From the NCBI GenBank assembly GCA_003551305.1, contig PUMJ01000156.1, positions 27,325 through 91,324 of the forward strand: a stretch of DNA of 64,000 nucleotides. The letters run 5' to 3'. Positions 15,562 to 63,395 of the stretch are shown piece after piece. The stretch is from Candidatus Brocadiaceae bacterium (lineage in GTDB: Bacteria > Planctomycetota > Brocadiia > SM23-32). A program made the position numbers and the translations under genes. The notes beneath the pieces were generated by a model, which was not told the origin of the DNA, ran no database searches, and was given only the letters and a program-made list of their open reading frames with translations. Position 1 is the first letter of the stretch, and each line of letters starts with the position of its first letter.

Positions 15562-15639
15562 TGGTAGCCCCAAGGGGATTTGAACCCCTGTTACCGGAAT
15601 GAGAGTCCGGCGTCCTGGACCGGGCTAGACGATGGGGCC
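15562..15639 (-). tRNA. tRNA-Glu (anticodon CUC)
   Basis: Reverse complement folds as acceptor GGCCCCA/UGGGGCU, D-arm GUCUAG..CCAGGAC, anticodon stem CCGGA/UCCGG with loop CUCUCAU (CUC), T-arm AGGGG-UUCAAAU-CCCCU. Discriminator A and CCA are encoded. Close to E. coli tRNA-Glu. Confidence 0.8.
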
Positions 15640-15653
15640 ACGTAATCTGAAGA

Positions 15654-15727
15654 TGGCTGAGGAACCAGGATTCGAACCTGGAATACCTGATCCAGAGTCA
15701 GGCGTGTTACCGTTACACCATTCCTCA
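15654..15727 (-). tRNA. tRNA-Gln (anticodon CUG)
   Basis: Reverse complement UGAGGAA UG GUGU AACGGUA ACAC G CCUGA CUCUGGA UCAGG UAUU CCAGG UUCGAAU CCUGG UUCCUCA G CCA. U1:A72 and G73 are typical of tRNA-Gln; CCA is encoded. Confidence 0.85.
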
Positions 15728-43860: not shown

Positions 43861-44062
43861 CCACAGGCTGCACGTGCGCAGCCGGCTGCGGGGGATCACG
43901 CGTGAAAGGCTCTCAGCGTGCCCTGCTTCGGACAAGCGGAGCCGAGCAAGTGCAGCGGCTCAGTCGCCGCTGTGCCGCTTGCTCCTCCCGCTTCTCTGCG
44001 CCGCGAATACCTCCACAGGCCTTTCCGATGGAGCGGGTGCCCGTCTGGGAAGGAGCGGGGGA
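43861..44062 (+). repeat. intergenic repeat family A, copy 1 (~202 bp)
   Basis: About 88% identical to 46615..46817 by eye over its full length. Contains nested palindromes ggctgcacgtgcgcagccggctgc and an imperfect long inverted repeat gagcaagtgcagcggc...gccgctgtgccgcttgctc. Confidence 0.7.
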
Positions 44063-44212
44063 AAACAGGAGTTTCCCCGAAAACCGGAGGGGGTGGGCAG
44101 CAAGTGGTTGGCCTGACGAGGGTTATGCTTTTGGGGATATGGAAGGCAGGATTCTCCGGTAAGATAGGCTAACCGAGGTGGTCCTTTTGGGGAATCTCCG
44201 GGTAGGAAAACC

Positions 44213-44310: not shown

Positions 44311-46575
44311 ATGTCCAATCCGTTGCTGACCATTCTGGCCGGATGTTTCCTGATCACCGTCGGCCTGCAGGCCGCCTCCGCCGCAACCGAGGGCGAGTCG
44401 CCCCGTCAACTCCAGGAGCGGACGACCTGGCCCTGTCCGCTTCCGCCCGACACGCTCGATCCCGCCGCGCTGTTGGACCTGCGCTATCTGAACGAGGAGC
44501 AGGCCGGCATGCACGGGTTCGTCAGCGTCGACGCCGAGGGCGGCTTCCGGCGTGGCGACGGTGAACCGCTGCGTTTCTGGTCCACGGTCGTGAAGTGGCA
44601 GACCAAAGACCCGGCCGAGATGGACCGCCTCGCCGGCTGGCTGGCCAAGCGGGGCGTGAACCTGGTGCGGCTGCACCCGCGGATCTGGACGCGCGAGGTC
44701 AAGCAGTTCGGTCAGATCGACCGCCAGGAGCACGACCACGTCCGCCAGATGGTGGCGGCCCTGAAGAACCACGGCATCTACACCCAGTTGCTGCTCTACA
44801 GCGCCATGGACGGCCAGGGGCTGCATGACCGCGTCGAAGGCGTGCCGGTCGGGCGGGAAGTCCGCTCGCCGCTGCAGACGGGCATCCTGTTTCTGCACGA
44901 GGGGCTCCAGGAGTTCCTGAAAGAATGGACCACCGCTCTGTTGACCGAGCCCAACCCCCATACGGGACTGCCGCTGGCCGAGGACCCGGCCGTGGCCCTG
45001 ATCGAGATCCAGAACGAAGACTCGCTGCTGTTCCACACTGTCAGAAACCTCCAGGGCGAAGACCTCAGGCTGGCCCAGTCGCTGTACGGCCAATGGCTGG
45101 CCCAGCGGTACGGCAGTCTGGAGCAGGCGCTCACGGCCTGGGGCGGTGCGCGGGCGGAGGGCGATGATCTCGCCGAAGGCCGGGCCGGCTTCTACCACCT
45201 CTGGGACCTGACCCGCGCGGGCATGGCCCACCATCGTCCCAGCGCGGCCGCGCGCCGGCGAATGGCCGACCAGACGCAGTGGTACACCGAGACGATGCGC
45301 AACTTCAACAAGGAGTTCATCACGTTCCTTCGCGAGGAGTGCGGCGTACGGGTGCCGACTATCCCGGGCAACTGGCGCACCGCCGACGACGTGACTCTCA
45401 TCGAGAACGAGCGCTACAGCTATGCCGTCGGCGAGGTGATCGCCGCCAACCGCTACTTCACCGGCGTCCACGCCGGGTCCAGGACGCACTACTGGGTCAG
45501 CCAGGACGACCACTTCGCGCCGGCCGCGATCGTGCTGGAGCCCGAGAGGCTTCCGATCAATGTCCGCCAGTTCAAAGGCAAGGCCTTCGCCGTCCCCGAG
45601 ACGATGTGGGTCGAGCCCAACACTTACCAGAGCGAGGGCGCACTGGCGATCGCGGCCTACCAGTCGCTCACCGGGGTCGACATCGTGCATTGGTACCACC
45701 AACGCGGCGACGACTGGCATACCCCCGCCACCTGGCGGCCAGGCTACGGGAAGTTCTCGGCCAACACACCGATGATCCAGGGCCTCTGGCCCGCGGCGGC
45801 GCTGCTGTTCCGTCAGGGGTACCTGCAACAGGCCCGGCCGGTGCTCATCGAGCGCCGCAGCCTGCAGGCGCTGTGGCAGCGCGAGGAGCCGGTCATCGCC
45901 GAGCAGGCCGTCTTCGACCCCAACCGCGACATCAGCGATGAGGCTCGGGCAAGCGGCTTTGAGGGCCCGGTCGATCCACTGGCGTTCATGGTCGGGCCGG
46001 TGCTGGTGGACTATTCCGAGGATCCCCAGCCCAGCGAGCTCATCGACCTGACGCCCTACATCGACCGGGACGGCCGGATCGTGCGGGCACGGACCGGCGA
46101 GATCGCGCTCGACTACGGCCTGGGTCTGCTCCGCGTGGAAGCCCCGAAGGTGCAGGCGGCCGCGGGCTTCCTCGGGCGGGCCGGGCGGCAGGAGTTCGCC
46201 GACGTCACCATCGACAGCGGCAACGAGTTCGCCAGCGTCATCATCATCGCGATGGACGATCGGCCCCTGCGCGAGTCGGCCCGGGTGCTCGTCCAGGTCG
46301 GCACGCGCCAGGAGCCGACAGGCTGGGACGTGGAAGAGGCCGAGTTCACCACCAGGGACCAGACCGTCCAGGGCTTCAAGATCGTCGATGTCGGCGGTCC
46401 CCCGTGGCAGATCGAGCGGGCCGACGTGCGGGTCCGCGTGGCGAACCCGTCCCTGCGCACGGCACACGTGCTCGACATCAACGGCATGCCTGTCGCCACC
46501 GTGCCGCTTGATCGCGACACCGACAGCGTGACCTTCCGCTTCCCGGTCGACGCGTTGTACGTCGTGCTTGAGTAG
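44311..46575 (+). CDS. secreted clan GH-A (TIM-barrel, GH5-like) glycoside hydrolase
   Basis: Signal peptide MSNPLLTILAGCFLITVGLQAASA; acid/base-like IEIQNEDS; 754 aa; family not assigned. Confidence 0.6.
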   Translation: MSNPLLTILAGCFLITVGLQAASAATEGESPRQLQERTTWPCPLPPDTLDPAALLDLRYLNEEQAGMHGFVSVDAEGGFRRGDGEPLRFWSTVVKWQTKDPAEMDRLAGWLAKRGVNLVRLHPRIWTREVKQFGQIDRQEHDHVRQMVAALKNHGIYTQLLLYSAMDGQGLHDRVEGVPVGREVRSPLQTGILFLHEGLQEFLKEWTTALLTEPNPHTGLPLAEDPAVALIEIQNEDSLLFHTVRNLQGEDLRLAQSLYGQWLAQRYGSLEQALTAWGGARAEGDDLAEGRAGFYHLWDLTRAGMAHHRPSAAARRRMADQTQWYTETMRNFNKEFITFLREECGVRVPTIPGNWRTADDVTLIENERYSYAVGEVIAANRYFTGVHAGSRTHYWVSQDDHFAPAAIVLEPERLPINVRQFKGKAFAVPETMWVEPNTYQSEGALAIAAYQSLTGVDIVHWYHQRGDDWHTPATWRPGYGKFSANTPMIQGLWPAAALLFRQGYLQQARPVLIERRSLQALWQREEPVIAEQAVFDPNRDISDEARASGFEGPVDPLAFMVGPVLVDYSEDPQPSELIDLTPYIDRDGRIVRARTGEIALDYGLGLLRVEAPKVQAAAGFLGRAGRQEFADVTIDSGNEFASVIIIAMDDRPLRESARVLVQVGTRQEPTGWDVEEAEFTTRDQTVQGFKIVDVGGPPWQIERADVRVRVANPSLRTAHVLDINGMPVATVPLDRDTDSVTFRFPVDALYVVLE

Positions 46576-46614: not shown

Positions 46615-46817
46615 CCACAGGCTGCACGTGCGCAGCCGGCTGCGGGGTGATCGCGCACGAAAGGATCTCAGCGTGCGCTGCTGCCGACTACCGGAGCCGG
46701 GCAAGTGCAGCGGCTCAGCCGCCGCTGTGCCGCTTACTCCTCCCGCTTCCCTGCGCCGCGAATACCACCACAGGCCTTTCCGATGGAGCGGGTGGCCGTC
46801 TGGGAAGGAGCGGGGGA
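46615..46817 (+). repeat. intergenic repeat family A, copy 2 (~203 bp)
   Basis: Direct-orientation copy of 43861..44062 in the next intergenic region downstream. Confidence 0.7.
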
Positions 46818-46909
46818 CAAGCCCTTGACATATCCTATACAGTCGAATAAGCTTGGTTCCAGGCGACAGGACCGGCTGGCGGGATCGGAAGGGGAGGAGG
46901 CGGCCCACT

Positions 46910-46969: not shown

Positions 46970-47216
46970 TCCTTGACGTGCTTAAGATAACATCGTGCAA
47001 CACTGAAGCAGTCGTACAATCGCCGTCGTCTGTGCATCCGGCCACAAAGCCGGCGGGCAAGCGTCGTGGTTACCCTGGTTCCTGCGCCCACAATCCCTGC
47101 TCAGGCGGGCGAGGAACCCGTCGCGCAACCCCGGTGCCTGTCTACGCGTCTCTTGAATCGTCAGATGGCTAATCGACCTGTTGCTCACTGACCTTAAGGA
47201 TAGAAGGGCTGCACCG

Positions 47217-48794
47217 ATGAGTGAGACGCTGTACAACGGCATCAGCCTGCCGGACGAGTGGCCGCCGCGCGACCAGTCGCCGGCCACCTCCCAGCCCATG
47301 CGCGTGCCCTATCTGCAGCGGCCGCCGGATGTGATCCCCATCGACGGCGGACGCCAGCTTCTGGTGGACGACTTCCTGATCGAGGACTCGATGATGCCCC
47401 GGGCCTTCCACCGCCCGGTCAAGCATACGGGCAACCCGGTTCTCTACCCCCAGACCGCCGACGAGTGCAACGAGGCCCTGCCGCCGACCGCCATCCCCAA
47501 GTGCGGCGGGGTCTGGTACGACGAGCGCGACCGGCTCTTCAAGATGTGGTACATGGCCAGCTATCTCGGAGCCATGGCCTACGCGGTCAGCAGCGACGGC
47601 ATCCACTGGGAGCGCCCGTCTCTGGACGTGGTGCCCGGGACCAACCTCACCCTGCCGCGGGATGTCCACCCCGATTCCGGCACCGCCTGGCTCGATCATG
47701 AGGCGGCCGACCCGGCGGAGCGCTTCAAGATGCAGATCCGCGAACCGAACAGCCCCGAGAAGGGCGGGAACTTCGGGGCGCTCATGCTGACCTCACCCGA
47801 CGGCATCCACTGGAACCAGCGACAGAGGACGGGGCCGATGGGCGACCGCAGCACCATGTTCTACAACCCGTTCCGGAAGGTCTGGGTGCAGAGCATCCGC
47901 AGCGGGGCGCCCGGCCGCGGGCGCTGCCGCCGTTACTTCGAGCACCCGGAGTTTCTGGCCTCGGGGAACTGGCAAGAGGGAGAACCGGTGTTCTGGACCG
48001 CAGCCGACTGCATGGACCTGGGCCGCGATGCCCGGGCGGAGTTGTACAATCTGGACGCGGTGGCCTATGAAAGCCTGATGGTGGGCTTCTACCAGGTCCT
48101 CAAGGGACCGCCGAATCACATCGGCCAGCGGACAGGCGAGCCCAAGCTGACCGAACTGGTGCTGGCCACCAGCCGGGACGGCTTTCACTGGCACCGCCCC
48201 GACCGCCGGGCCTTCATCGGCGCCCGCCGCGAGCCGGGCTCGTGGGAGTACGGATACGTCGAATCCACCGGCGGGATTATGCTCGTGGTTGAGGACGAAC
48301 TGTGGTTCTACTACTCGGCCTACGGGGGCGATCCCGACCGCATAACCGATGACTGGCACACCAACGGCATGTACGGCAACGGAGCGGTCGGCCTGGCCCG
48401 GCTCCGCCGTGACGGCTTCGCCTCGCTGCAGGGCCGTTTCCCGGGCGCCGGCATGACCACTCGCCCGCTGCGGTTCTCCGGCGACCGGCTTTTCGTCAAC
48501 GCCGGCACCGTCGGCACGCGCCTCAGAGTGGAGTGCCTCGACGAGCAGCGGCAAGCCATCCCGGGATACTCCCTGGAGGACTGCGAGGGCTTCGTCGGCA
48601 ACTCCACCCGGGCCGAGATCCGGTGGAAGGACGGGGCCGGCATCGGGCAACTGGCCGGCCGAGCGGTGCGCCTGCGTTTCCAGATGGACCGGGGCGACCT
48701 CTACTCCTTCTGGGTGAGTGCGCACGAGGACGGACGCTCCGGCGGTTACCTTGCCGCAGGTGGGCCGGGTTTCACCGAGGCGAGGCACATTTGA
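47217..48794 (+). CDS. beta-propeller glycoside-hydrolase-like protein (GH43/GH32/GH130-type fold), family unassigned
   Basis: From Met13 of the track ORF: ...TGNPVLYPQ...GGVWYDERDRLFKMWY...SSDGIHWERP...LATSRDGFHWHRP...WFYYSAYG. No signal peptide. Confidence 0.45.
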   Translation: MSETLYNGISLPDEWPPRDQSPATSQPMRVPYLQRPPDVIPIDGGRQLLVDDFLIEDSMMPRAFHRPVKHTGNPVLYPQTADECNEALPPTAIPKCGGVWYDERDRLFKMWYMASYLGAMAYAVSSDGIHWERPSLDVVPGTNLTLPRDVHPDSGTAWLDHEAADPAERFKMQIREPNSPEKGGNFGALMLTSPDGIHWNQRQRTGPMGDRSTMFYNPFRKVWVQSIRSGAPGRGRCRRYFEHPEFLASGNWQEGEPVFWTAADCMDLGRDARAELYNLDAVAYESLMVGFYQVLKGPPNHIGQRTGEPKLTELVLATSRDGFHWHRPDRRAFIGARREPGSWEYGYVESTGGIMLVVEDELWFYYSAYGGDPDRITDDWHTNGMYGNGAVGLARLRRDGFASLQGRFPGAGMTTRPLRFSGDRLFVNAGTVGTRLRVECLDEQRQAIPGYSLEDCEGFVGNSTRAEIRWKDGAGIGQLAGRAVRLRFQMDRGDLYSFWVSAHEDGRSGGYLAAGGPGFTEARHI

Positions 48795-58456: not shown

Positions 58457-59245
58457 ATGGACGAAATGCCGGACATCCTGGCCAGGATATGCCGCGCCAA
58501 GCGCGAGGAAGTGGCCGCGCTCAAGGCGGAAAAAGGCGCCGCCCTCCGCGAAGCCATCCGAAACGCCGGGCCCACCCGCGGGTTCCGCCGCGCCCTAACC
58601 GTCGACGAGACGGTGGCCCTCATCGCCGAGGTCAAGAAGGCGTCCCCCTCGGCGGGCCTCATCCGGCAGGACTTCGACCCCGTCCAGATAGCCCGCGCCT
58701 ACGAGCAGGCCGGCGCCGCCTGCGTCAGCGTGCTGACCGACCGGCAGTTCTTCCAGGGCGAGCCGAACTACCTGGCCCGCATACGCCGCGAAGTGCGCCT
58801 GCCCCTGCTGCGCAAGGACTTCATCCTGGACGAGTCGCAGGTGGTGGAGGCTCGCGCCCTGGGGGCAGACGCCTGCCTGCTTATCGTCGCAGCGCTGGAG
58901 CCCGCCCACCTGACGGAGCTGCTGGCCACCTGCTCGGAACTGCACATGGACGCGCTGGTCGAGGTCCACGACGAGACGGAACTGGAGATCGCGCTGGAGG
59001 CCGGCGCCGACCTGGTGGGCATCAACAACCGCGACCTGCGCACATTCCAGGTCGACCTTCAGACCTCCGAGCGGCTGGCGCCGCACGTGCCCGATGGCGT
59101 CGTCGTGGTGGCCGAGAGCGGCATCAGGATGCCCGACGATGTGCGCCGCCTCAAAGAGTGCGGCGTCCACGGGGTGCTGGTGGGAGAGACGCTGATGCGC
59201 GCCGCCGACGTGGAGGCCGCCGCCCGGACACTGGTGGGCATCTGA
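58457..59245 (+). CDS. trpC: indole-3-glycerol phosphate synthase
   Basis: ILARICRAKREEVAALK...LIAEVKKASPSAGLIRQDFDP...VSVLTDRQFFQG...VGINNRDL: canonical TrpC. Confidence 0.85.
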   Translation: MDEMPDILARICRAKREEVAALKAEKGAALREAIRNAGPTRGFRRALTVDETVALIAEVKKASPSAGLIRQDFDPVQIARAYEQAGAACVSVLTDRQFFQGEPNYLARIRREVRLPLLRKDFILDESQVVEARALGADACLLIVAALEPAHLTELLATCSELHMDALVEVHDETELEIALEAGADLVGINNRDLRTFQVDLQTSERLAPHVPDGVVVVAESGIRMPDDVRRLKECGVHGVLVGETLMRAADVEAAARTLVGI

Positions 59246-59405
59246 CCGTCGCGCCTGCCCAATACCACCCCGGGCCTTCGGAGGGGACAAACTTCGGACA
59301 GGGTGCTCCACGTTCACCCCAGCCGGCCCTCTCAACGGTATTCCGCGCAACGCGCATCCTCTTGCAGCGCCGGGGCCGGCCCCGCAGGCGCGCCCCAAAA
59401 ATTCC

Positions 59406-59433
59406 TTGACATACGCCGGCGGCAGGCTATAAC
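59406..59433 (+). promoter_or_regulatory. conserved promoter of DUF1559-like paralog 1
   Basis: TTGACA - 16 nt - TATAAC, then a 56-nt leader to ATG 59490. Same architecture as at 61591 and 62739. Confidence 0.4.
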
Positions 59434-59489
59434 GGGGATATCGGAAATCGGAGACCAGGACCGCGTCTGACCCAAGGGGAGGGAGGATC

Positions 59490-59981
59490 ATGAGGAAGGC
59501 TGCCGGTGTTCTTGCCGTGGTAATGCTTGCCGGTTTCATGGTGAACGGGGCGGCCCTGGCCGCCGACCCGGCGCAGGCGGCGCCGGCCGATGCGTTCCTC
59601 TACCTCGAGGTCAACCGCCCGGCAGTCCAGGAGGCCCTGGCCATGGCGGCCTTGCCGCCCGTGGTGGGGCTGATCCCGGACCTGGGGCCGTTCCACGACC
59701 CGTTTGGCCACCTGGACGAGCTTCTGGACCAGGAGGCCGGCACCGTCAACCAAGCGGTCCGCGCGCTGCAGCGGGCCGCCTTCTGCGTCGGGCCCGCCGG
59801 CCCGATGTTGCTGGTATCCTTTGACGAAGCGTTCGCCCCCGCCCGGATACTTCCCGACGACGGGGCGGAGGCAGAAGGCGTTCACGCGCTTGATGACTAC
59901 ATGGCGCTGGCCGTCAGGGGACAGATTGTGTGTTTTGCCTCGCCGGAGGTGGGCCGCCGTTTCGTGGCGGGCGATTACTAG
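59490..59981 (+). CDS. secreted hypothetical protein; reading frame continues past an in-frame TAG into the next ORF
   Basis: GGGAGGGAGG RBS; signal peptide MRKAAGVLAVVMLAGFMVNGAALAADPAQA. The TAG at 59979..59981 is followed, with no further stop, by ORF 60039..61463 in the same frame. Confidence 0.5.
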   Translation: MRKAAGVLAVVMLAGFMVNGAALAADPAQAAPADAFLYLEVNRPAVQEALAMAALPPVVGLIPDLGPFHDPFGHLDELLDQEAGTVNQAVRALQRAAFCVGPAGPMLLVSFDEAFAPARILPDDGAEAEGVHALDDYMALAVRGQIVCFASPEVGRRFVAGDY

Positions 59982-60038
59982 GCCCTGGCGGGTCGAGAGC
60001 GCTTCCGTGCGGCACGGCAAGAACGCGGTCGCGCGGAC

Positions 60039-61463
60039 GTGTGGGCTTTCGCCGACGCTCCGGCCCTCATGCAGCTTGCCTTCGCCCAGGCCACGCGCGC
60101 AGAAGCCAAGAGAATGGAACTGGCGGTTGATCTCCTCGGTCTGGACGACGCCGAATACGCCGCCTTCGAATACGCCACGGATGAGCGGGCCGTGAACCTG
60201 ATGCTGAGGCTGGGGCAACCGGCCGACGGAGTCCTCTACCGGTTCCCCGAAGGGGCGCTCGACCTGGTGTCCCTCGTACCGGCGGAGCCGTCCGCTGCCC
60301 TGGTGTTCCGCTGGGACGACCCGGTCGCTTTCCTGGGCGGGGTGCGAGACGACATGATCCGGGTTGACACCACCCACTTTGAGGGTCCATTGGGGGAGGA
60401 CATCGCCGCCGCCGAGGAGGCGCTGGCCCTGAGGTTCGACGATCTGTTCGCGCAGCTTGGCGCGGGCTTCGCCCTCGTGCTGCCCCAGCCCGGCCCGGAC
60501 GGCCTGCTGCGCCCTGAGCAGTCTTACGCCGTCCTGCCGCTGGCGGACAGGGAGGGGTTCCGCGCCTCGCTGGGGCGGATAGCCGCAGCCGTAACGGGCG
60601 CGGCCCCTGCCGAGCGAACCGTGGCTGGCCTGCCGGCCGACTCCCTCATGATGCCGCCGCTGACGGTCGCCTACCTGGAGGACCGGGCCGTCATCGGCCT
60701 GGCCCCGGCCGCCATCGAGGCGTACGCGGCCTGGATCGAGGGCGACGGGCCGCCGATGATGGAAGAGCCGCCGCAGGCCGCCGGCCTGCTTTACCTGGAC
60801 ACGGGCCTGCTGATAAGCAGCTATCCGGAGCCGCTACCCGGCACGCAACTGCATCTCACTCTTGGCCGGACTGACCGGGATGTGCGGCTCACCGCCCGCG
60901 AGGCGGGTCCGCCGCTGTCACTGGGGCAGGCATACAAGGGCTATGCGGCGGTCATGGCCGCCATGCTGATGCCGGCCCTGAGCCGGGCCAGGGGGGAAGC
61001 CGGGAGAGCCGCAGACCGGGCCAATCTCCGCAATATCGGCCTTGCCCTGGCCATGTACAGATCCGAACACGACGAACACTATCCCCCGGGACTGTATGCG
61101 CTGGTCGAGAAGGGCTACCTCCACTCACCGGAGAACCTGGTCTCTCCGGGAGACCCCGACCCTCCCCGCATCGGGCCGCAGGGCTCCCCCTGCAGCTACG
61201 AGTACCCCGGCTCGCTGCCGGCCGACGTGCCTTGGGATGCCGCTGTGGCTTACACGCGGCGGGGCGTCTTCGCCGATGGCCGCCATGTCCTCTTCGCGGA
61301 CGGCAATGTGATCTTCGTGCCGGAGAGCCAGATTGCGAGCGGTTGGACGGGGCTCGGTTCGCTGCAGGAAACCTACAACTGGCTCATGGAGCGGCGAGAG
61401 GAGTGGCCCGAGGACGCCGACCCCGACCGCATCGCGGACTTCTACGGCATGCCGCGGCGGTGA
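60039..61463 (+). CDS. degenerate DUF1559 (H-X9-DG)-like protein with a long N-terminal extension; possible pseudogene or read-through fusion with 59490..59981
   Basis: C-terminal 190 aa (YAAVMAAMLMPALSRARGEAGRAADRANLRNIGLALAMYRSEHDEHYPPGL...GRHVLFADGNVIFV...NWLMERREEWPEDADPDRIADFYGMPRR) are paralogous to 61675..62232 and 62823..63395. The GTG start at 60039 is arbitrary; the frame is open back to 59490. Confidence 0.5.
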   Translation: MWAFADAPALMQLAFAQATRAEAKRMELAVDLLGLDDAEYAAFEYATDERAVNLMLRLGQPADGVLYRFPEGALDLVSLVPAEPSAALVFRWDDPVAFLGGVRDDMIRVDTTHFEGPLGEDIAAAEEALALRFDDLFAQLGAGFALVLPQPGPDGLLRPEQSYAVLPLADREGFRASLGRIAAAVTGAAPAERTVAGLPADSLMMPPLTVAYLEDRAVIGLAPAAIEAYAAWIEGDGPPMMEEPPQAAGLLYLDTGLLISSYPEPLPGTQLHLTLGRTDRDVRLTAREAGPPLSLGQAYKGYAAVMAAMLMPALSRARGEAGRAADRANLRNIGLALAMYRSEHDEHYPPGLYALVEKGYLHSPENLVSPGDPDPPRIGPQGSPCSYEYPGSLPADVPWDAAVAYTRRGVFADGRHVLFADGNVIFVPESQIASGWTGLGSLQETYNWLMERREEWPEDADPDRIADFYGMPRR

Positions 61464-61590
61464 ATCCCCGCCTGGCAAGAGCCGTCTACGGCTGAGGCGC
61501 CCCGAGCGCGGCCGTTGTGTGGGAAATCCGCGTGGTGTGCATTCTCTCTGCGGCGCCCGAGTCAGGCTCGGCGGGTGCGCCGTAACCCTT

Positions 61591-61618
61591 TTGAAATACG
61601 CTCCTTACAGGGTAAGAA
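61591..61618 (+). promoter_or_regulatory. conserved promoter of DUF1559-like paralog 2
   Basis: TTGAAA - 16 nt (tacgctccttacaggg) - TAAGAA, then a 56-nt leader to ATG 61675. Confidence 0.35.
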
Positions 61619-61674
61619 GGAGATGTCGGCAGCCGGGCGCCGGGACCTTGTCCGCTCAAGCGGGGGAGGGAACA

Positions 61675-62232
61675 ATGAGGAAGACCTTCCGCGTGGTTGG
61701 CGTGGTGATTCTCGCGGCTTTGGCGGTATTGTTGGCCGTCATGATAACACCGTCGCTTTTGGAGCCTCGGCGCAGGTCAAATGACCGCTCCAATCTTCGT
61801 ATGGTCGGCCTTGGACTGGTTCTTTACGGGTCCCAGCACGAGGGGCGTTTCCCCCCGGGACTGCATACGCTGGCAGAGGAAGGGCACATCGATTCGCCGA
61901 GGAGGTTGGTCTCGCCGGGGGACTCCAACCCTCCCAGTATCGGGCCGCAGGGCTTTCCGTGCAGCTACGAGTACCCGGGCCCACTGCCGGTTCGTGTGCA
62001 CCGGGGAATCGCTGTGGCTTACACGAGGCGGGGCGTCTTCCCCGACGGCCGCAATGTCCTCTTCGCCGATGGCAGTGTGCGCTTCGTGCGAGAGAGTCAT
62101 TTTTCGCGCGGTTGGACAGGGCGCGTTTCGCTCCAGGACGCATACAACTGGCTGATGGAGCGGAAGGAGTATCTGCCGGAGAACGCCGACCTGGACCGCA
62201 TCGCCGACTTCTACGGCATGTCCCGGCCGTAA
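61675..62232 (+). CDS. degenerate DUF1559 (H-X9-DG)-like small membrane-anchored protein, paralog 2
   Basis: From Met115 of track ORF 61333 (GGGGGAGGG RBS): MRKTFRVVGVVILAALAVLLAVMITPSLLEPRRRSNDRSNLRMVGLGLVLYGSQHEGRFPPGL...DGRNVLFADGSVRFV...NWLMERKEYLPENADLDRIADFYGMSRP. Confidence 0.6.
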   Translation: MRKTFRVVGVVILAALAVLLAVMITPSLLEPRRRSNDRSNLRMVGLGLVLYGSQHEGRFPPGLHTLAEEGHIDSPRRLVSPGDSNPPSIGPQGFPCSYEYPGPLPVRVHRGIAVAYTRRGVFPDGRNVLFADGSVRFVRESHFSRGWTGRVSLQDAYNWLMERKEYLPENADLDRIADFYGMSRP

Positions 62233-62738
62233 ACCCGGCTCCGAGACCCCCCGGCTATGGCCGAGGCATCCGCGTTGCGGACTGTGACGCCGTCTTTGCC
62301 GGGAGGAAAGGCTGGGTAGTTTCCGCTGCCGGCAAGCCGGCGTACCTGTTTAGCGTGTATTCGATCCGGCGGATCGCAGGGGCAAGGATGCCCCCGCGTG
62401 GCCGGCAGGGATGCCGGCGCTACAAACGGTCGGGAAACGCAGCTCCCCACGTAGCGCCACCTTCCAACCTTCGCCTCCAGCGAACGCTGGCCACCTGCGG
62501 GCATCTTGCCCGCAGTAAAAGGCGCACGCTAAACAGGTACAAGCCGGCAGTCGAAAGAGCGGCGGCAAGCCGCCGCAATCCAGGGGCCGCTGCCCGCGCA
62601 CGCACGGGCCTTCGGAGGGGCAAGCTTTGGACCGGGTGCTCCACGTTCACCCCACGCGGCCTTCTCACCGGCATTCCGCGCAAGGCGCACCTTTTCGCAG
62701 CGCCCGAGCACGGCCCCGCAGGCCGCGCTCTAACCCTC

Positions 62739-62766
62739 TTGACATAAGCTCCTTACAGGGTATAAA
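62739..62766 (+). promoter_or_regulatory. conserved promoter of DUF1559-like paralog 3
   Basis: TTGACA - 16 nt (taagctccttacaggg) - TATAAA, then a 56-nt leader to ATG 62823. Confidence 0.4.
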
Positions 62767-62822
62767 GGAGATATCGGCAGTCGGGGACCGGGACCGCGTC
62801 TGCCCCAAGGGGAGTAGGAACC

Positions 62823-63395
62823 ATGAAAAAGACCTTCCTCGTGGTTGGCATGGTGATTCTTTGGGCTTTCGTGGGCGCGATGGTTCTCATGATGATCTGG
62901 TCGCACCCGTCCATCCTGAGGACGGGGCCCCGGCGTAGACCGACTGACCGCGGCAATCTCCGCAATATCGGGATCGCCCTTTCGATGTACAGGTCCGTGC
63001 ATGAGGAGCCCTATCCCCCGGGACTGCATACGCTGGTGGAGGAGGGGTTCCTCCAGGGCCAGGAGAGCCTGGTGTCCCCGAACGACCCCGACCCTCCCCG
63101 CATCGGGCCGCAGGGCTATCCCTGCAGCTACGAGTACCCGGGCCCGCTACCGGCCGACGTGCCCCCGGATTTCGTAGTGGCTTACACGCGGCGAGGCGTC
63201 TTGTCCGAGGGCCGCAATGTCCTCTTCGCCGATGGCGCTGTGGTCTACGTGCCGGAGAGCGACATTGCGCGCGGCGAGACAGGGCGCGTTTCGCTCCAGG
63301 ACGCATACAACTGGCTCATGGAGCGGAAGGAGGATCTGCCGGAGGACGCCGACCTGGACCGCATCGCGGACTTTTACGGCGTGCCGCGGCCCTGA
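62823..63395 (+). CDS. degenerate DUF1559 (H-X9-DG)-like small membrane-anchored protein, paralog 3
   Basis: MKKTFLVVGMVILWAFVGAMVLMMIW...RGNLRNIGIALSMYRSVHEEPYPPGL...GRNVLFADGAVVYV...NWLMERKEDLPEDADLDRIADFYGVPRP. Confidence 0.6.
   Translation: MKKTFLVVGMVILWAFVGAMVLMMIWSHPSILRTGPRRRPTDRGNLRNIGIALSMYRSVHEEPYPPGLHTLVEEGFLQGQESLVSPNDPDPPRIGPQGYPCSYEYPGPLPADVPPDFVVAYTRRGVLSEGRNVLFADGAVVYVPESDIARGETGRVSLQDAYNWLMERKEDLPEDADLDRIADFYGVPRP

Follow-up and report, generated by a model that had tools for sequence, protein, structure and literature searches.

The question raised by this locus is whether three neighbouring genes that share a protein module are decayed prepilins kept under common control, or the product of another history. 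In the window (the whole 64-kb stretch of DNA analysed), a module HMM run against the six-frame translation found exactly three copies of the module, one in each of the co-directional ORFs g1, g2 and g3, where it spans 150-175 aa. Amino acid identity among the three was 60-69% in a first alignment and 64-71% over the 154-aa module core. The first-pass annotation had reported three co-directional module genes with a common upstream layout, an observation that ORF translation and alignment confirmed. It had also taken g1 for a paralog of ~190 aa, which is wrong. The g1 gene (59490-61463, + strand, as are the other two) is a long form of 657 codons whose translation contains a Sec signal peptide, an N-domain of ~480 aa and, at the C-terminus, the pilin-like, DUF1559-related module (60939-61460; alignment, module HMM and hhalign), with an in-frame TAG (59979-59981) interrupting the reading frame. 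The short form g2 (61675-62232; 185 aa) consists of a 23-residue apolar N-terminal anchor plus the module. The short form g3 (62823-63395; 190 aa) has a 24-residue apolar anchor, a Pro/Arg-rich linker, a pilin-fold head and a two-helix tail.

DUF1559 (SBP_bac_10; PF07596) comprises prepilin-type proteins with a C-terminal H-X9-DG motif (TIGR04294) that are massively expanded in Planctomycetota, with 74 paralogs in R. baltica (PMC2754498), 68 in P. limnophila (PMC10632474) and 91 in T. immobilis (PMC8567305). The homology of the trio to this family, as first proposed, was sustained: hhalign matched the module to Pfam-verified prepilin DUF1559 proteins at 99.8% (E 3e-29), g2 scored 26.1 bits against TIGR04294 (cutoff 19), and several close relatives exceed the Pfam gathering threshold, below which the trio module itself scores. 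The homologous region runs from the alpha1-C helix (..AMLMPAL.RAR....NL..IGLA..MY) through the GRNVLFADG.V strand, and both groups occur in PVC-type uncultured bacteria. The module differs from DUF1559 in that the stretch between its conserved ends is ~75 aa, compared with ~210 in the Pfam model, in a two-helix tail of ~45 aa added after the DG motif, and in its apparent ancestral setting at the C-terminus of a Sec-exported protein of ~660 aa. Direct reading and alignment bore out the reported loss of signature residues. The prepilin cleavage/methylation motif is absent from the trio (no G-1, no E+5), a G-F-T-L-I-E-type motif was found nowhere in the window, and where H-X9-DG has its His the three copies carry F, F and L, with DG retained. 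The extra tail noted earlier (NWLMER...RIADFYG) is present, but it is not special to the trio, being conserved family-wide as ...SL..SY....G..LT.E....L..FYEVE; residues invariant in the trio are likewise conserved across the family.

In a sequence profile search of the PDB, pilins were the only matches at E<0.05, with weak matches to the GspG/EpsG/PulG pseudopilin and to the type IV pilins PilA4, PilE, PilV and ComP. The structural model of the module has a truncated type IV pilin/pseudopilin fold plus the two-helix tail, a domain of ~170 aa in g1. Unlike pilins and pseudopilins, however, the module lacks a class III signal peptide, Glu5 and the context of a Phe1 methylation site, and in the g3 model a Pro/Gly/Arg-rich linker parts the hydrophobic helix from alpha1-C. 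No T2SS or T4P genes were found near the trio.

The description of the trio as degenerate paralogs that had lost a prepilin signature fails for g1, a full-length protein of a widespread ~660-aa family with Sec signal peptides. Over its whole length it aligns with ten homologs of ~660 aa (30-36% identity), and a profile search retrieved 334 cluster representatives at E<1e-10, in which the module is mostly C-terminal. The long-form architecture is widespread across uncultured PVC-type bacteria, and in the long-form alignment P0007 and two more relatives bear an additional bona fide T2SSG domain. The signal peptides of g1 and of the long form in the syntenic relative L001 have an h-region of 12-15 residues followed by ALA|ADP. 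The g1 N-domain, as modelled, resembles Mog1/PsbP-like envelope lipid-binding folds. In homologs, the residue aligned with the TAG comes after a conserved GDY and varies (A, V, P, S or E), and L001 has GAG at this position; the nonsense codon would be a later gain by GAG to TAG change, or it could be a sequencing error. Three SBP_bac_10 proteins with Sec/SPI signal peptides are documented in the Tuwongella immobilis proteome, with counts and fractionation behaviour (PMC8567305). By description they resemble g1 in that a Sec signal peptide precedes a DUF1559-type domain, but that paper describes no long N-domain, C-terminal tail or tandem short derivatives. Long and short forms also alternate elsewhere: at the same syntenic position (AP_endonuc_2 ... 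der-uvrA), L002 has a long form and L081 a short form with a TM anchor.

We consider it probable that the locus arose by lineage-specific tandem expansion of an envelope protein, with g1 as the ancestral long form and g2 and g3 as deletion derivatives. The local amplification claimed at the outset is upheld by phylogeny and synteny. Bootstrap support for the g1+g2+g3 clade is 100%, with the ortholog P0003 outside it, and L001 has trpC followed by a single long form and no short copies; the duplication came after the split from this syntenic relative. The segment from just after trpC through g1 would have been duplicated, and an in-frame deletion of ~469 codons, its breakpoints taken from protein alignment alone (codons ~14-30 are too diverged for blastn), would have brought the initial ~16 codons of the signal peptide up against what remains of hydrophobic alpha1-C (AVMAAMLMPAL). 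In the duplicates the start codon would have been retained, along with the sigma-70-like promoter and the 56-nt leader with its ribosome-binding site. Repeat analysis and blastn showed DNA homology that is unbroken from the promoter across the ATG into ~50 nt of coding sequence. The g2 and g3 proteins begin MRKTFRV and MKKTFLV, the L001 long-form signal peptide MKRTVRV, and the 23-24 apolar residues of the short forms are not followed by a polar c-region. Branching order within the trio was weakly supported (g1+g3 63%, g2+g3 30%); a single deletion event predicts g2 and g3 as sisters, so rate differences or gene conversion are needed to fit the tree.

The upstream cassette described by the first-pass annotation (TTGACA or TTGAAA, a 16-nt spacer, a -10-like hexamer, 56 nt and a G-rich ribosome-binding site) was read directly in front of all three genes, again on the + strand. 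The g1 promoter is TTGACA-16 nt-TATAAC (59406-59433; -35 at 59406-59411), the g2 cassette is the promoter-like TTGAAA-16 nt-TAAGAA with a poor -10 hexamer (61591-61618; -35 at 61591-61596), and the g3 promoter is TTGACA-16 nt-TATAAA (62739-62766; -35 at 62739-62744); the g1 and g3 hexamers were also located by pattern search and those of g2 by alignment. A strict sigma-70 scan called none of the three promoters because their -10 hexamers have no T at position 6. The leaders, delimited by alignment, lie at 59434-59489 (g1, with the GGGGATATCGG box and a GGAGG ribosome-binding site), 61619-61674 (g2) and 62767-62822 (g3). In all three copies the distance from the -10-like hexamer to the ATG is exactly 56 nt and the ribosome-binding site is of the GGAGG type. 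The further claim that copies 1 and 3 share about 150 bp upstream holds for ~135 nt. The far-upstream segment of g1 (59271-59405) recurs 5' of g3 (62605-62738; repeat D5, blastn), the ~135-140 nt before the -35 being 86% identical within a blastn match of 59271-59481 to 62605-62814 at 81%. This segment has no counterpart in L001, and the similarity is therefore mostly a legacy of duplication. Upstream, the ortholog has in common with the trio only the ribosome-binding site, a GAT(A/G)TCGG box and the -35 and -10 hexamers; both g1 hexamers are identical in L001, with the spacer diverged.

Three other accounts of these data were weighed. In one, canonical DUF1559 prepilin paralogs lost Gly-1, Glu+5 and His by point mutation and were then amplified locally with their promoter. 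The g2 N-terminus aligns gap-free to a Lentisphaeria canonical leader (MRKTFRVVGVVIL... vs MRKNFTLVELLVV...; MRKTFRVVG vs MRKNFTLVE), with Phe+1 retained and Pro at residue 26 in both, and the hydrophobic helix of g3 coincides with canonical alpha1 in the hhalign alignment. Yet the spacing to the Pro differs in g3, the module of g1 lies 480 aa downstream of a typical Sec signal peptide, and the trio nests, together with P0003, within the long-form clade. Moreover, the 5' ends of g2 and g3 have DNA-level homology to the g1 signal-peptide coding region and resemble the L001 signal peptide, so that their N-termini appear to come from the Sec signal peptide of g1 by internal in-frame deletion instead of by decay of a prepilin leader. 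In-place degeneration is disfavoured, and we hold it to be quite improbable. We judge it unlikely, too, that g2 and g3 are non-functional partial copies becoming pseudogenes, with a cassette conserved through shared ancestry only. Such decay would fit the dN/dS of 0.38-0.52 among the copies, where ~0.45 indicates relaxed constraint, the decayed g2 -10 hexamer, the upstream non-coding identity of 68-86%, near that of fourfold-degenerate sites (74-77%), the ortholog's want of the far-upstream segment, the MITE in the spacer, the stop codon in the parent gene, and the GC content of g2 and g3 (62-65%), below that of g1 (69.5%). Against it, both ORFs are intact despite a dS of ~0.4-0.55; with ~3% of point changes creating a stop, neutral evolution should have produced several. 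The 95% CIs for dN/dS all lie below 1, and the copies are under purifying selection; the ribosome-binding site, start codon and 56-nt spacing are kept in all three, and the trio-invariant residues are those conserved in the family.

The remaining account, which extends the earlier suggestion of a riboswitch- or thermometer-like leader, is that the 56-nt leader acts as a cis-regulatory RNA (riboswitch, thermometer or attenuator) and exerts common post-transcriptional control over the trio. The exact match in length among the three leaders, the 85% identity of the g1 and g3 leaders and a GGRGATRTCGG box conserved also in the ortholog are in keeping with this. However, no leader folds better than shuffled sequences (z = +1.41 for g1, then -0.24, +0.64 and -0.59; range -0.6 to +1.4), the consensus structure reaches just -7.3 kcal/mol, its covariation term being ~0, and Rfam gave no match even at E<10. 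The ortholog leader, moreover, is 59 nt long and mostly different, and the window has no further occurrence of the leader motif. We regard this account as highly improbable; the tandem expansion is ordinary gene-family growth and no new regulatory system.

The designation of the trio as a non-piliated subfamily stands, in that its proteins cannot be prepilin-peptidase substrates. Because the short proteins have no Gly-1, no Glu+5 and no continuous alpha1, neither cleavage by prepilin peptidase nor polymerisation into fibres is expected of them. Hydropathy, on which the topology call rests, suggests that they would be inserted via the Sec pathway as N-in/C-out signal-anchored proteins with the tethered pilin-like head facing the periplasm. 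Judged from sequence, they would be expressed and serve as static binding or adaptor modules.

The 590-nt spacer between g2 and g3 contains a MITE-like insertion (62342-62540), which would have entered a palindrome there as a later event. It is like MITEs in its length of 199 bp, its lack of an ORF, its perfect 16-bp terminal inverted repeats (GTACCTGTTTAGCGTG; inverted-repeat search) and the perfect 8-bp direct repeats that flank it, the target-site duplications AAGCCGGC read directly at 62334-62341 and 62541-62548; it differs in having one copy only within the window. The fold z-scores of the insertion are -6.4 (+ strand) and -5.7 (- strand), and it had no Rfam, plasmid or phage match. Its ends may be IS66-like (GTA..., 8-bp duplication). 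In L080, an unrelated metagenome contig, the same termini enclose another interior and the flanks match imperfectly.

The three co-directional genes g1, g2 and g3 lie on the forward strand downstream of trpC, which encodes indole-3-glycerol phosphate synthase (58457-59245). The g1 gene runs from an ATG at 59490 to a stop at 61463, and it appears in the ORF listing as two ORFs of 163 and 474 aa in the same frame because of an in-frame TAG at 59979-59981. At its C-terminal end g1 has ~175 aa that match the whole of g2 (61675-62232; 185 aa) and of g3 (62823-63395; 190 aa) at 60-69% identity. This common C-terminal module is 64-71% identical among the three genes over a 154-aa core, and when all six frames of the 64-kb window were searched with a module HMM, these three copies alone were recovered. 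The first-pass annotation had described a tandem array of three degenerate paralogs; the module and the upstream layout stand, while the first gene is a long gene with a stop codon. The G+C contents of g2 and g3 (62.5% and 64.9%) are below those of g1 (69.5%) and of the whole window (67.8%).

That g1 is one more short degenerate paralog is contradicted by its full-length alignment to ~660-aa homologs. When the TAG is read through, g1 can be aligned from start to end with ten homologs (30-36% identity), and it keeps every invariant column of this alignment (A3), in which g1 is itself included. It has the Sec signal peptide, the ~480-aa N-terminal domain (N-domain) and the C-terminal module of a long-form family of ~660 aa. 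A HMMER search with the three-copy profile, covering 1.84 billion representatives of 50%-identity clusters, gave 7549 matches at E<1e-3, 334 at E<1e-10 and 24 at E<1e-30. Most of the strong matches have 650-670 aa and carry the module C-terminally, and several of the closest exceed the Pfam DUF1559 threshold. A word-index protein search with g3 returned only g3 itself and g2, an exact-protein lookup of g3 gave no record, and peptide-pattern scans of genome and metagenome contigs, drawn from the three-copy alignment, gave zero matches.

The nearest relative, P0003, is encoded on a syntenic contig (L001), where a single long form comes after trpC, next to it lies an opposite-strand mutY-like gene, and there are no short forms at the locus. 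In a neighbour-joining tree g1, g2 and g3 form a clade with 100% bootstrap support that leaves P0003 outside as its sister (100%), and the duplications are therefore placed after the split from the P0003 lineage; within the trio, g1+g3 are grouped at 63% and g2+g3 at 30%. The clade and the single-copy state of the L001 locus confirm the local amplification that had been proposed. The codon after a conserved GDY is TAG in the window and GAG in L001, and the L001 long form has a frameshift of its own (~795), upstream of the position matching the window TAG. The long form is broken at different places in the two relatives, reflecting either independent decay of this lineage's long form or assembly error.

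The simplest reading of these sequences is that g1 represents the common form and that g2 and g3 would be its derivatives by in-frame deletion of ~469 codons. DNA homology between g1 and g2/g3 is unbroken from the promoter across the ATG to ~50 nt inside the reading frame (repeat D2), and returns at the NLRNIG region, from 61014 onward, at 77-82%; the deletion junction is too diverged for proof at the DNA level. The N-termini of g2/g3 (MRKTFRV and MKKTFLV) are similar to the long-form signal peptide of L001 (MKRTVRV). In g1 and L001 an h-region of 12-15 residues is followed by ALA|ADP; in g2/g3 23-24 apolar residues stand in a row and are followed by a Pro/Arg-rich linker. The deletion would have joined the first part of the signal peptide to a remnant of the hydrophobic alpha1-C, resulting in a signal anchor. 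The g2 N-terminus can also be aligned without gaps to a canonical prepilin leader. The proposed history of the locus is ordinary in evolutionary terms: duplication and in-frame deletion, a stop codon gained by the parent gene, and the insertion of a MITE. Over the 149 ungapped codons of g1-g3, dN/dS was 0.38, 0.43 and 0.52, each with a 95% bootstrap interval below 1, at dS values of 0.37-0.55. About 3% of point changes create a stop codon, and the g2 and g3 ORFs are both intact. As g1 is interrupted, it may be that g2 and g3 alone still work.

In hhalign, a 65-sequence module alignment matched a canonical DUF1559 profile at 99.8% (E 3.1e-29, 132 columns), with a mild selection bias in that the comparators were chosen from loci that tblastn had already matched. 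Of the seven comparator proteins, six came from Lentisphaeria and Victivallales loci and were confirmed by Pfam to have both N_methyl and DUF1559, and the seventh was P0160. Because of this match, and because its alignment begins at the alpha1-C helix and extends to the GRNVLFADG strand, the module is a compact pilin-fold relative of DUF1559, and the suggested homology holds at the profile level. By structure comparison the module has the alpha1 helix on an antiparallel beta-sheet of the type IV pilin/T2SS pseudopilin fold.

Although homologous to the DUF1559 superfamily, g1-g3 fail its Pfam threshold and lack both its prepilin motif and its His. The PF07596 (DUF1559/SBP_bac_10) scores of g1, g2 and g3 (19.1, 18.7 and 13.3 bits) are below the gathering threshold of 23.3 bits, and the match is confined to the profile ends (positions 3-36 and 247-264 of 268); the close relatives P0004 (60.5), P0005 (32.8), P0025 (69.4) and P0007 (27.0) are above it. 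For TIGR04294 (cutoff 19 bits) g2 scored above at 26.1 bits, g3 below at 12.2 bits, and g1 had no match. The canonical His of H-X9-DG aligns with Leu in g3 and is replaced by Phe in g1 and g2, as its reported loss implied, and the DG is kept in all three, with the motif ~50 residues before the C-terminus. The prepilin signature is likewise missing as described: HMMs for N_methyl (PF07963/TIGR02532) found no match in g1-g3, the positions equivalent to the motif are T-1, F+1 and G+5 in g2/g3, and G-F-T-L-I-E is absent from every frame of the 64-kb window. The tail after the DG motif, modelled as two helices, had been considered an extra of the trio; it is conserved throughout the family (...SL..SY....G..LT.E....L..FYEVE). 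The subfamily to which g1-g3 belong is compact, has a tail and is missed by current models.

The long-form N-domain has 28 relatives among the fetched proteins by phmmer, and Pfam assigned it to no family; a weak DUF3352 match in one relative was not reproduced in others and was discarded. Its model presumably resembles Mog1/PsbP-like folds, which are typical of envelope lipid-binding proteins, and since the scores are modest this predicted likeness is only a hint. In other relatives the module stands behind DUF4190, in two cases also with a zinc ribbon. A 655-aa long form (L002:6247-8214) occupies the slot between AP_endonuc_2, a xylose-isomerase-like TIM barrel, and der-uvrA, and in another MAG the syntenic slot (L081:5541-6122/L082:5537-6118) holds a TM-anchored short form of 193 aa. 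The N-domain therefore seems to have been lost repeatedly, and the portability of the head as a module is evident. A 333-aa neighbour of another short form, P0033, was ruled out as a split-off N-domain, as it has no similarity to it.

In Planctomycetota, DUF1559 prepilins make up very large sets of paralogs whose function is unknown (PMC2754498, PMC10632474), and a few SBP_bac_10 proteins with a Sec signal peptide have been noted in Tuwongella (PMC8567305). DUF1559 is among the largest unexplained paralog expansions of Planctomycetota and related bacteria. The genes studied here suggest that the DUF1559 pilin-like core also exists in a compact, apparently fibre-incompetent form, joined to other domains or anchors and missed by current Pfam models, and that this form can be quickly reshaped by duplication and in-frame deletion, with promoter, leader and start codon coming along. 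We propose that g1-type proteins would be Sec-exported envelope proteins with a pilin head unfit for fibre assembly. The g2 and g3 proteins would be minimal versions that an uncleaved hydrophobic segment holds at the inner membrane, with a separate copy of the parental promoter driving each gene. In the periplasm they would presumably serve as static modules for binding or docking. As they have neither Gly-1 nor Glu+5, nor an unbroken alpha1 helix, they are predicted to be unable to act as prepilin-peptidase substrates or fibre subunits.

A wider possibility, which we advance tentatively and consider somewhat unlikely, is that the module represents an unrecognised PVC-type family of pilin heads that form no filaments and act as docking or ligand-binding units, to which no fewer than 334 cluster representatives from the profile search (50% identity, E<1e-10) would belong. 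If so, a truncated pilin fold with a two-helix tail would serve as the C-terminal domain of Sec-exported envelope proteins, or as a head on varied anchors (one TM helix, or DUF4190, to which a zinc ribbon may be added), and may couple lipid-binding-like N-domains to pseudopilus machinery or envelope glycans. The locus would then capture a head freed from its N-domain, the minimal anchored version replacing a decaying parent. The short proteins (185-190 aa), which are confidently modelled, are convenient targets for questions of what DUF1559 heads bind.

Each gene is preceded by a -35 hexamer (TTGACA at 59406, TTGAAA at 61591 and TTGACA at 62739, + strand), a 16-nt spacer and a -10-like hexamer (TATAAC, TAAGAA and TATAAA for g1, g2 and g3), which in all three is exactly 56 nt from the ATG, with a GGAGG-type ribosome-binding site. 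Direct reading thus agrees with the common promoter-leader architecture of the first-pass annotation, and also with its remark that copies 1 and 3 are alike further upstream, here over a further ~135 nt at 86% identity. Promoter plus leader are 68-79% identical in all pairs, and the g1-g3 leaders alone 85%. Because these upstream identities are close to the 74-77% of fourfold-degenerate sites in all pairs, the non-coding likeness is about that predicted by shared ancestry, with g1-g3 somewhat higher. Of this upstream sequence the ortholog keeps no more than the pair of hexamers, the ribosome-binding site and a GAT(A/G)TCGG box, and this speaks for a genuine sigma-70-like promoter. Conservation in the ortholog does not extend to the far-upstream segment, which argues against a special far-upstream regulatory element. 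A strict sigma-70 and terminator scan gave zero sites, rejecting these promoters because their -10 hexamers have no T at position 6, and the promoter call is therefore made from conservation alone.

The conserved spacing of the leaders had raised the idea of a common RNA structure, such as a riboswitch or RNA thermometer. Four leaders folded no better than shuffles (z = +1.41, -0.24, +0.64 and -0.59), their consensus fold was weak, with a covariation term of -0.06 kcal/mol and no covariation signal, and Rfam had no match to leaders or spacer (whole window at the gathering threshold; region at E<10), and the idea was rejected. Phase variation was dismissed, there being no simple-sequence tracts, and a wider regulon is ruled out within the 64-kb window, where the cassette motifs occur at g1-g3 only. 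A new regulatory mechanism is not indicated. The sole Rfam matches in the window at the gathering threshold are a pair of adjacent tRNA genes (15565-15727, - strand). The window has a second duplicated upstream cassette, a ~205-nt direct repeat (43861-44065 and 46615-46820; an identical stretch of 33 nt and after it 176 nt at 90%) whose copies lie upstream of consecutive + strand ORFs without Pfam matches (44311-46575, 754 aa; 47181-48794, 537 aa).

Within the g2-g3 spacer, a 199-bp element at 62342-62540 makes 62300-62600 fold much more stably than shuffled sequence, with z = -6.4 for the + strand and z = -5.7 for the - strand. The element has perfect 16-bp terminal inverted repeats (GTACCTGTTTAGCGTG, 16/16) and is directly flanked by a perfect 8-bp target-site duplication (AAGCCGGC, 62334-62341 and 62541-62548), and its insertion site is the palindrome GCTGCCGGCAAGCCGGCAGTC. 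Folding scores of z = -6.4 and -9.2 had favoured a structured ncRNA, which was abandoned since the flanking duplication and palindromic target fit a MITE; an integron attC site was ruled out by core motifs in the wrong order. The element is a MITE-like insertion with no part in the regulation of the gene family. Its termini occur once in the window, and when metagenome contigs were searched for exact matches to both arms, one further element came up, on Ga0114950_10106450 (L080:648-835), with the same termini and an unrelated interior and gene context; viral contigs, plasmids and phages gave no match. A weak Rfam Ms_IGR-4 match at 62557-62595 (21.7 bits; gathering score 55) is probably meaningless. 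This segment, GCGGCGGCaaGCCGCCGC, just outside the MITE, is one of two GC-rich palindromes of the form N6-8GGC-AA/TCT-GCCN6-8, the other being CTGCGGGCAtctTGCCCGCAG at 62495-62515, inside it.
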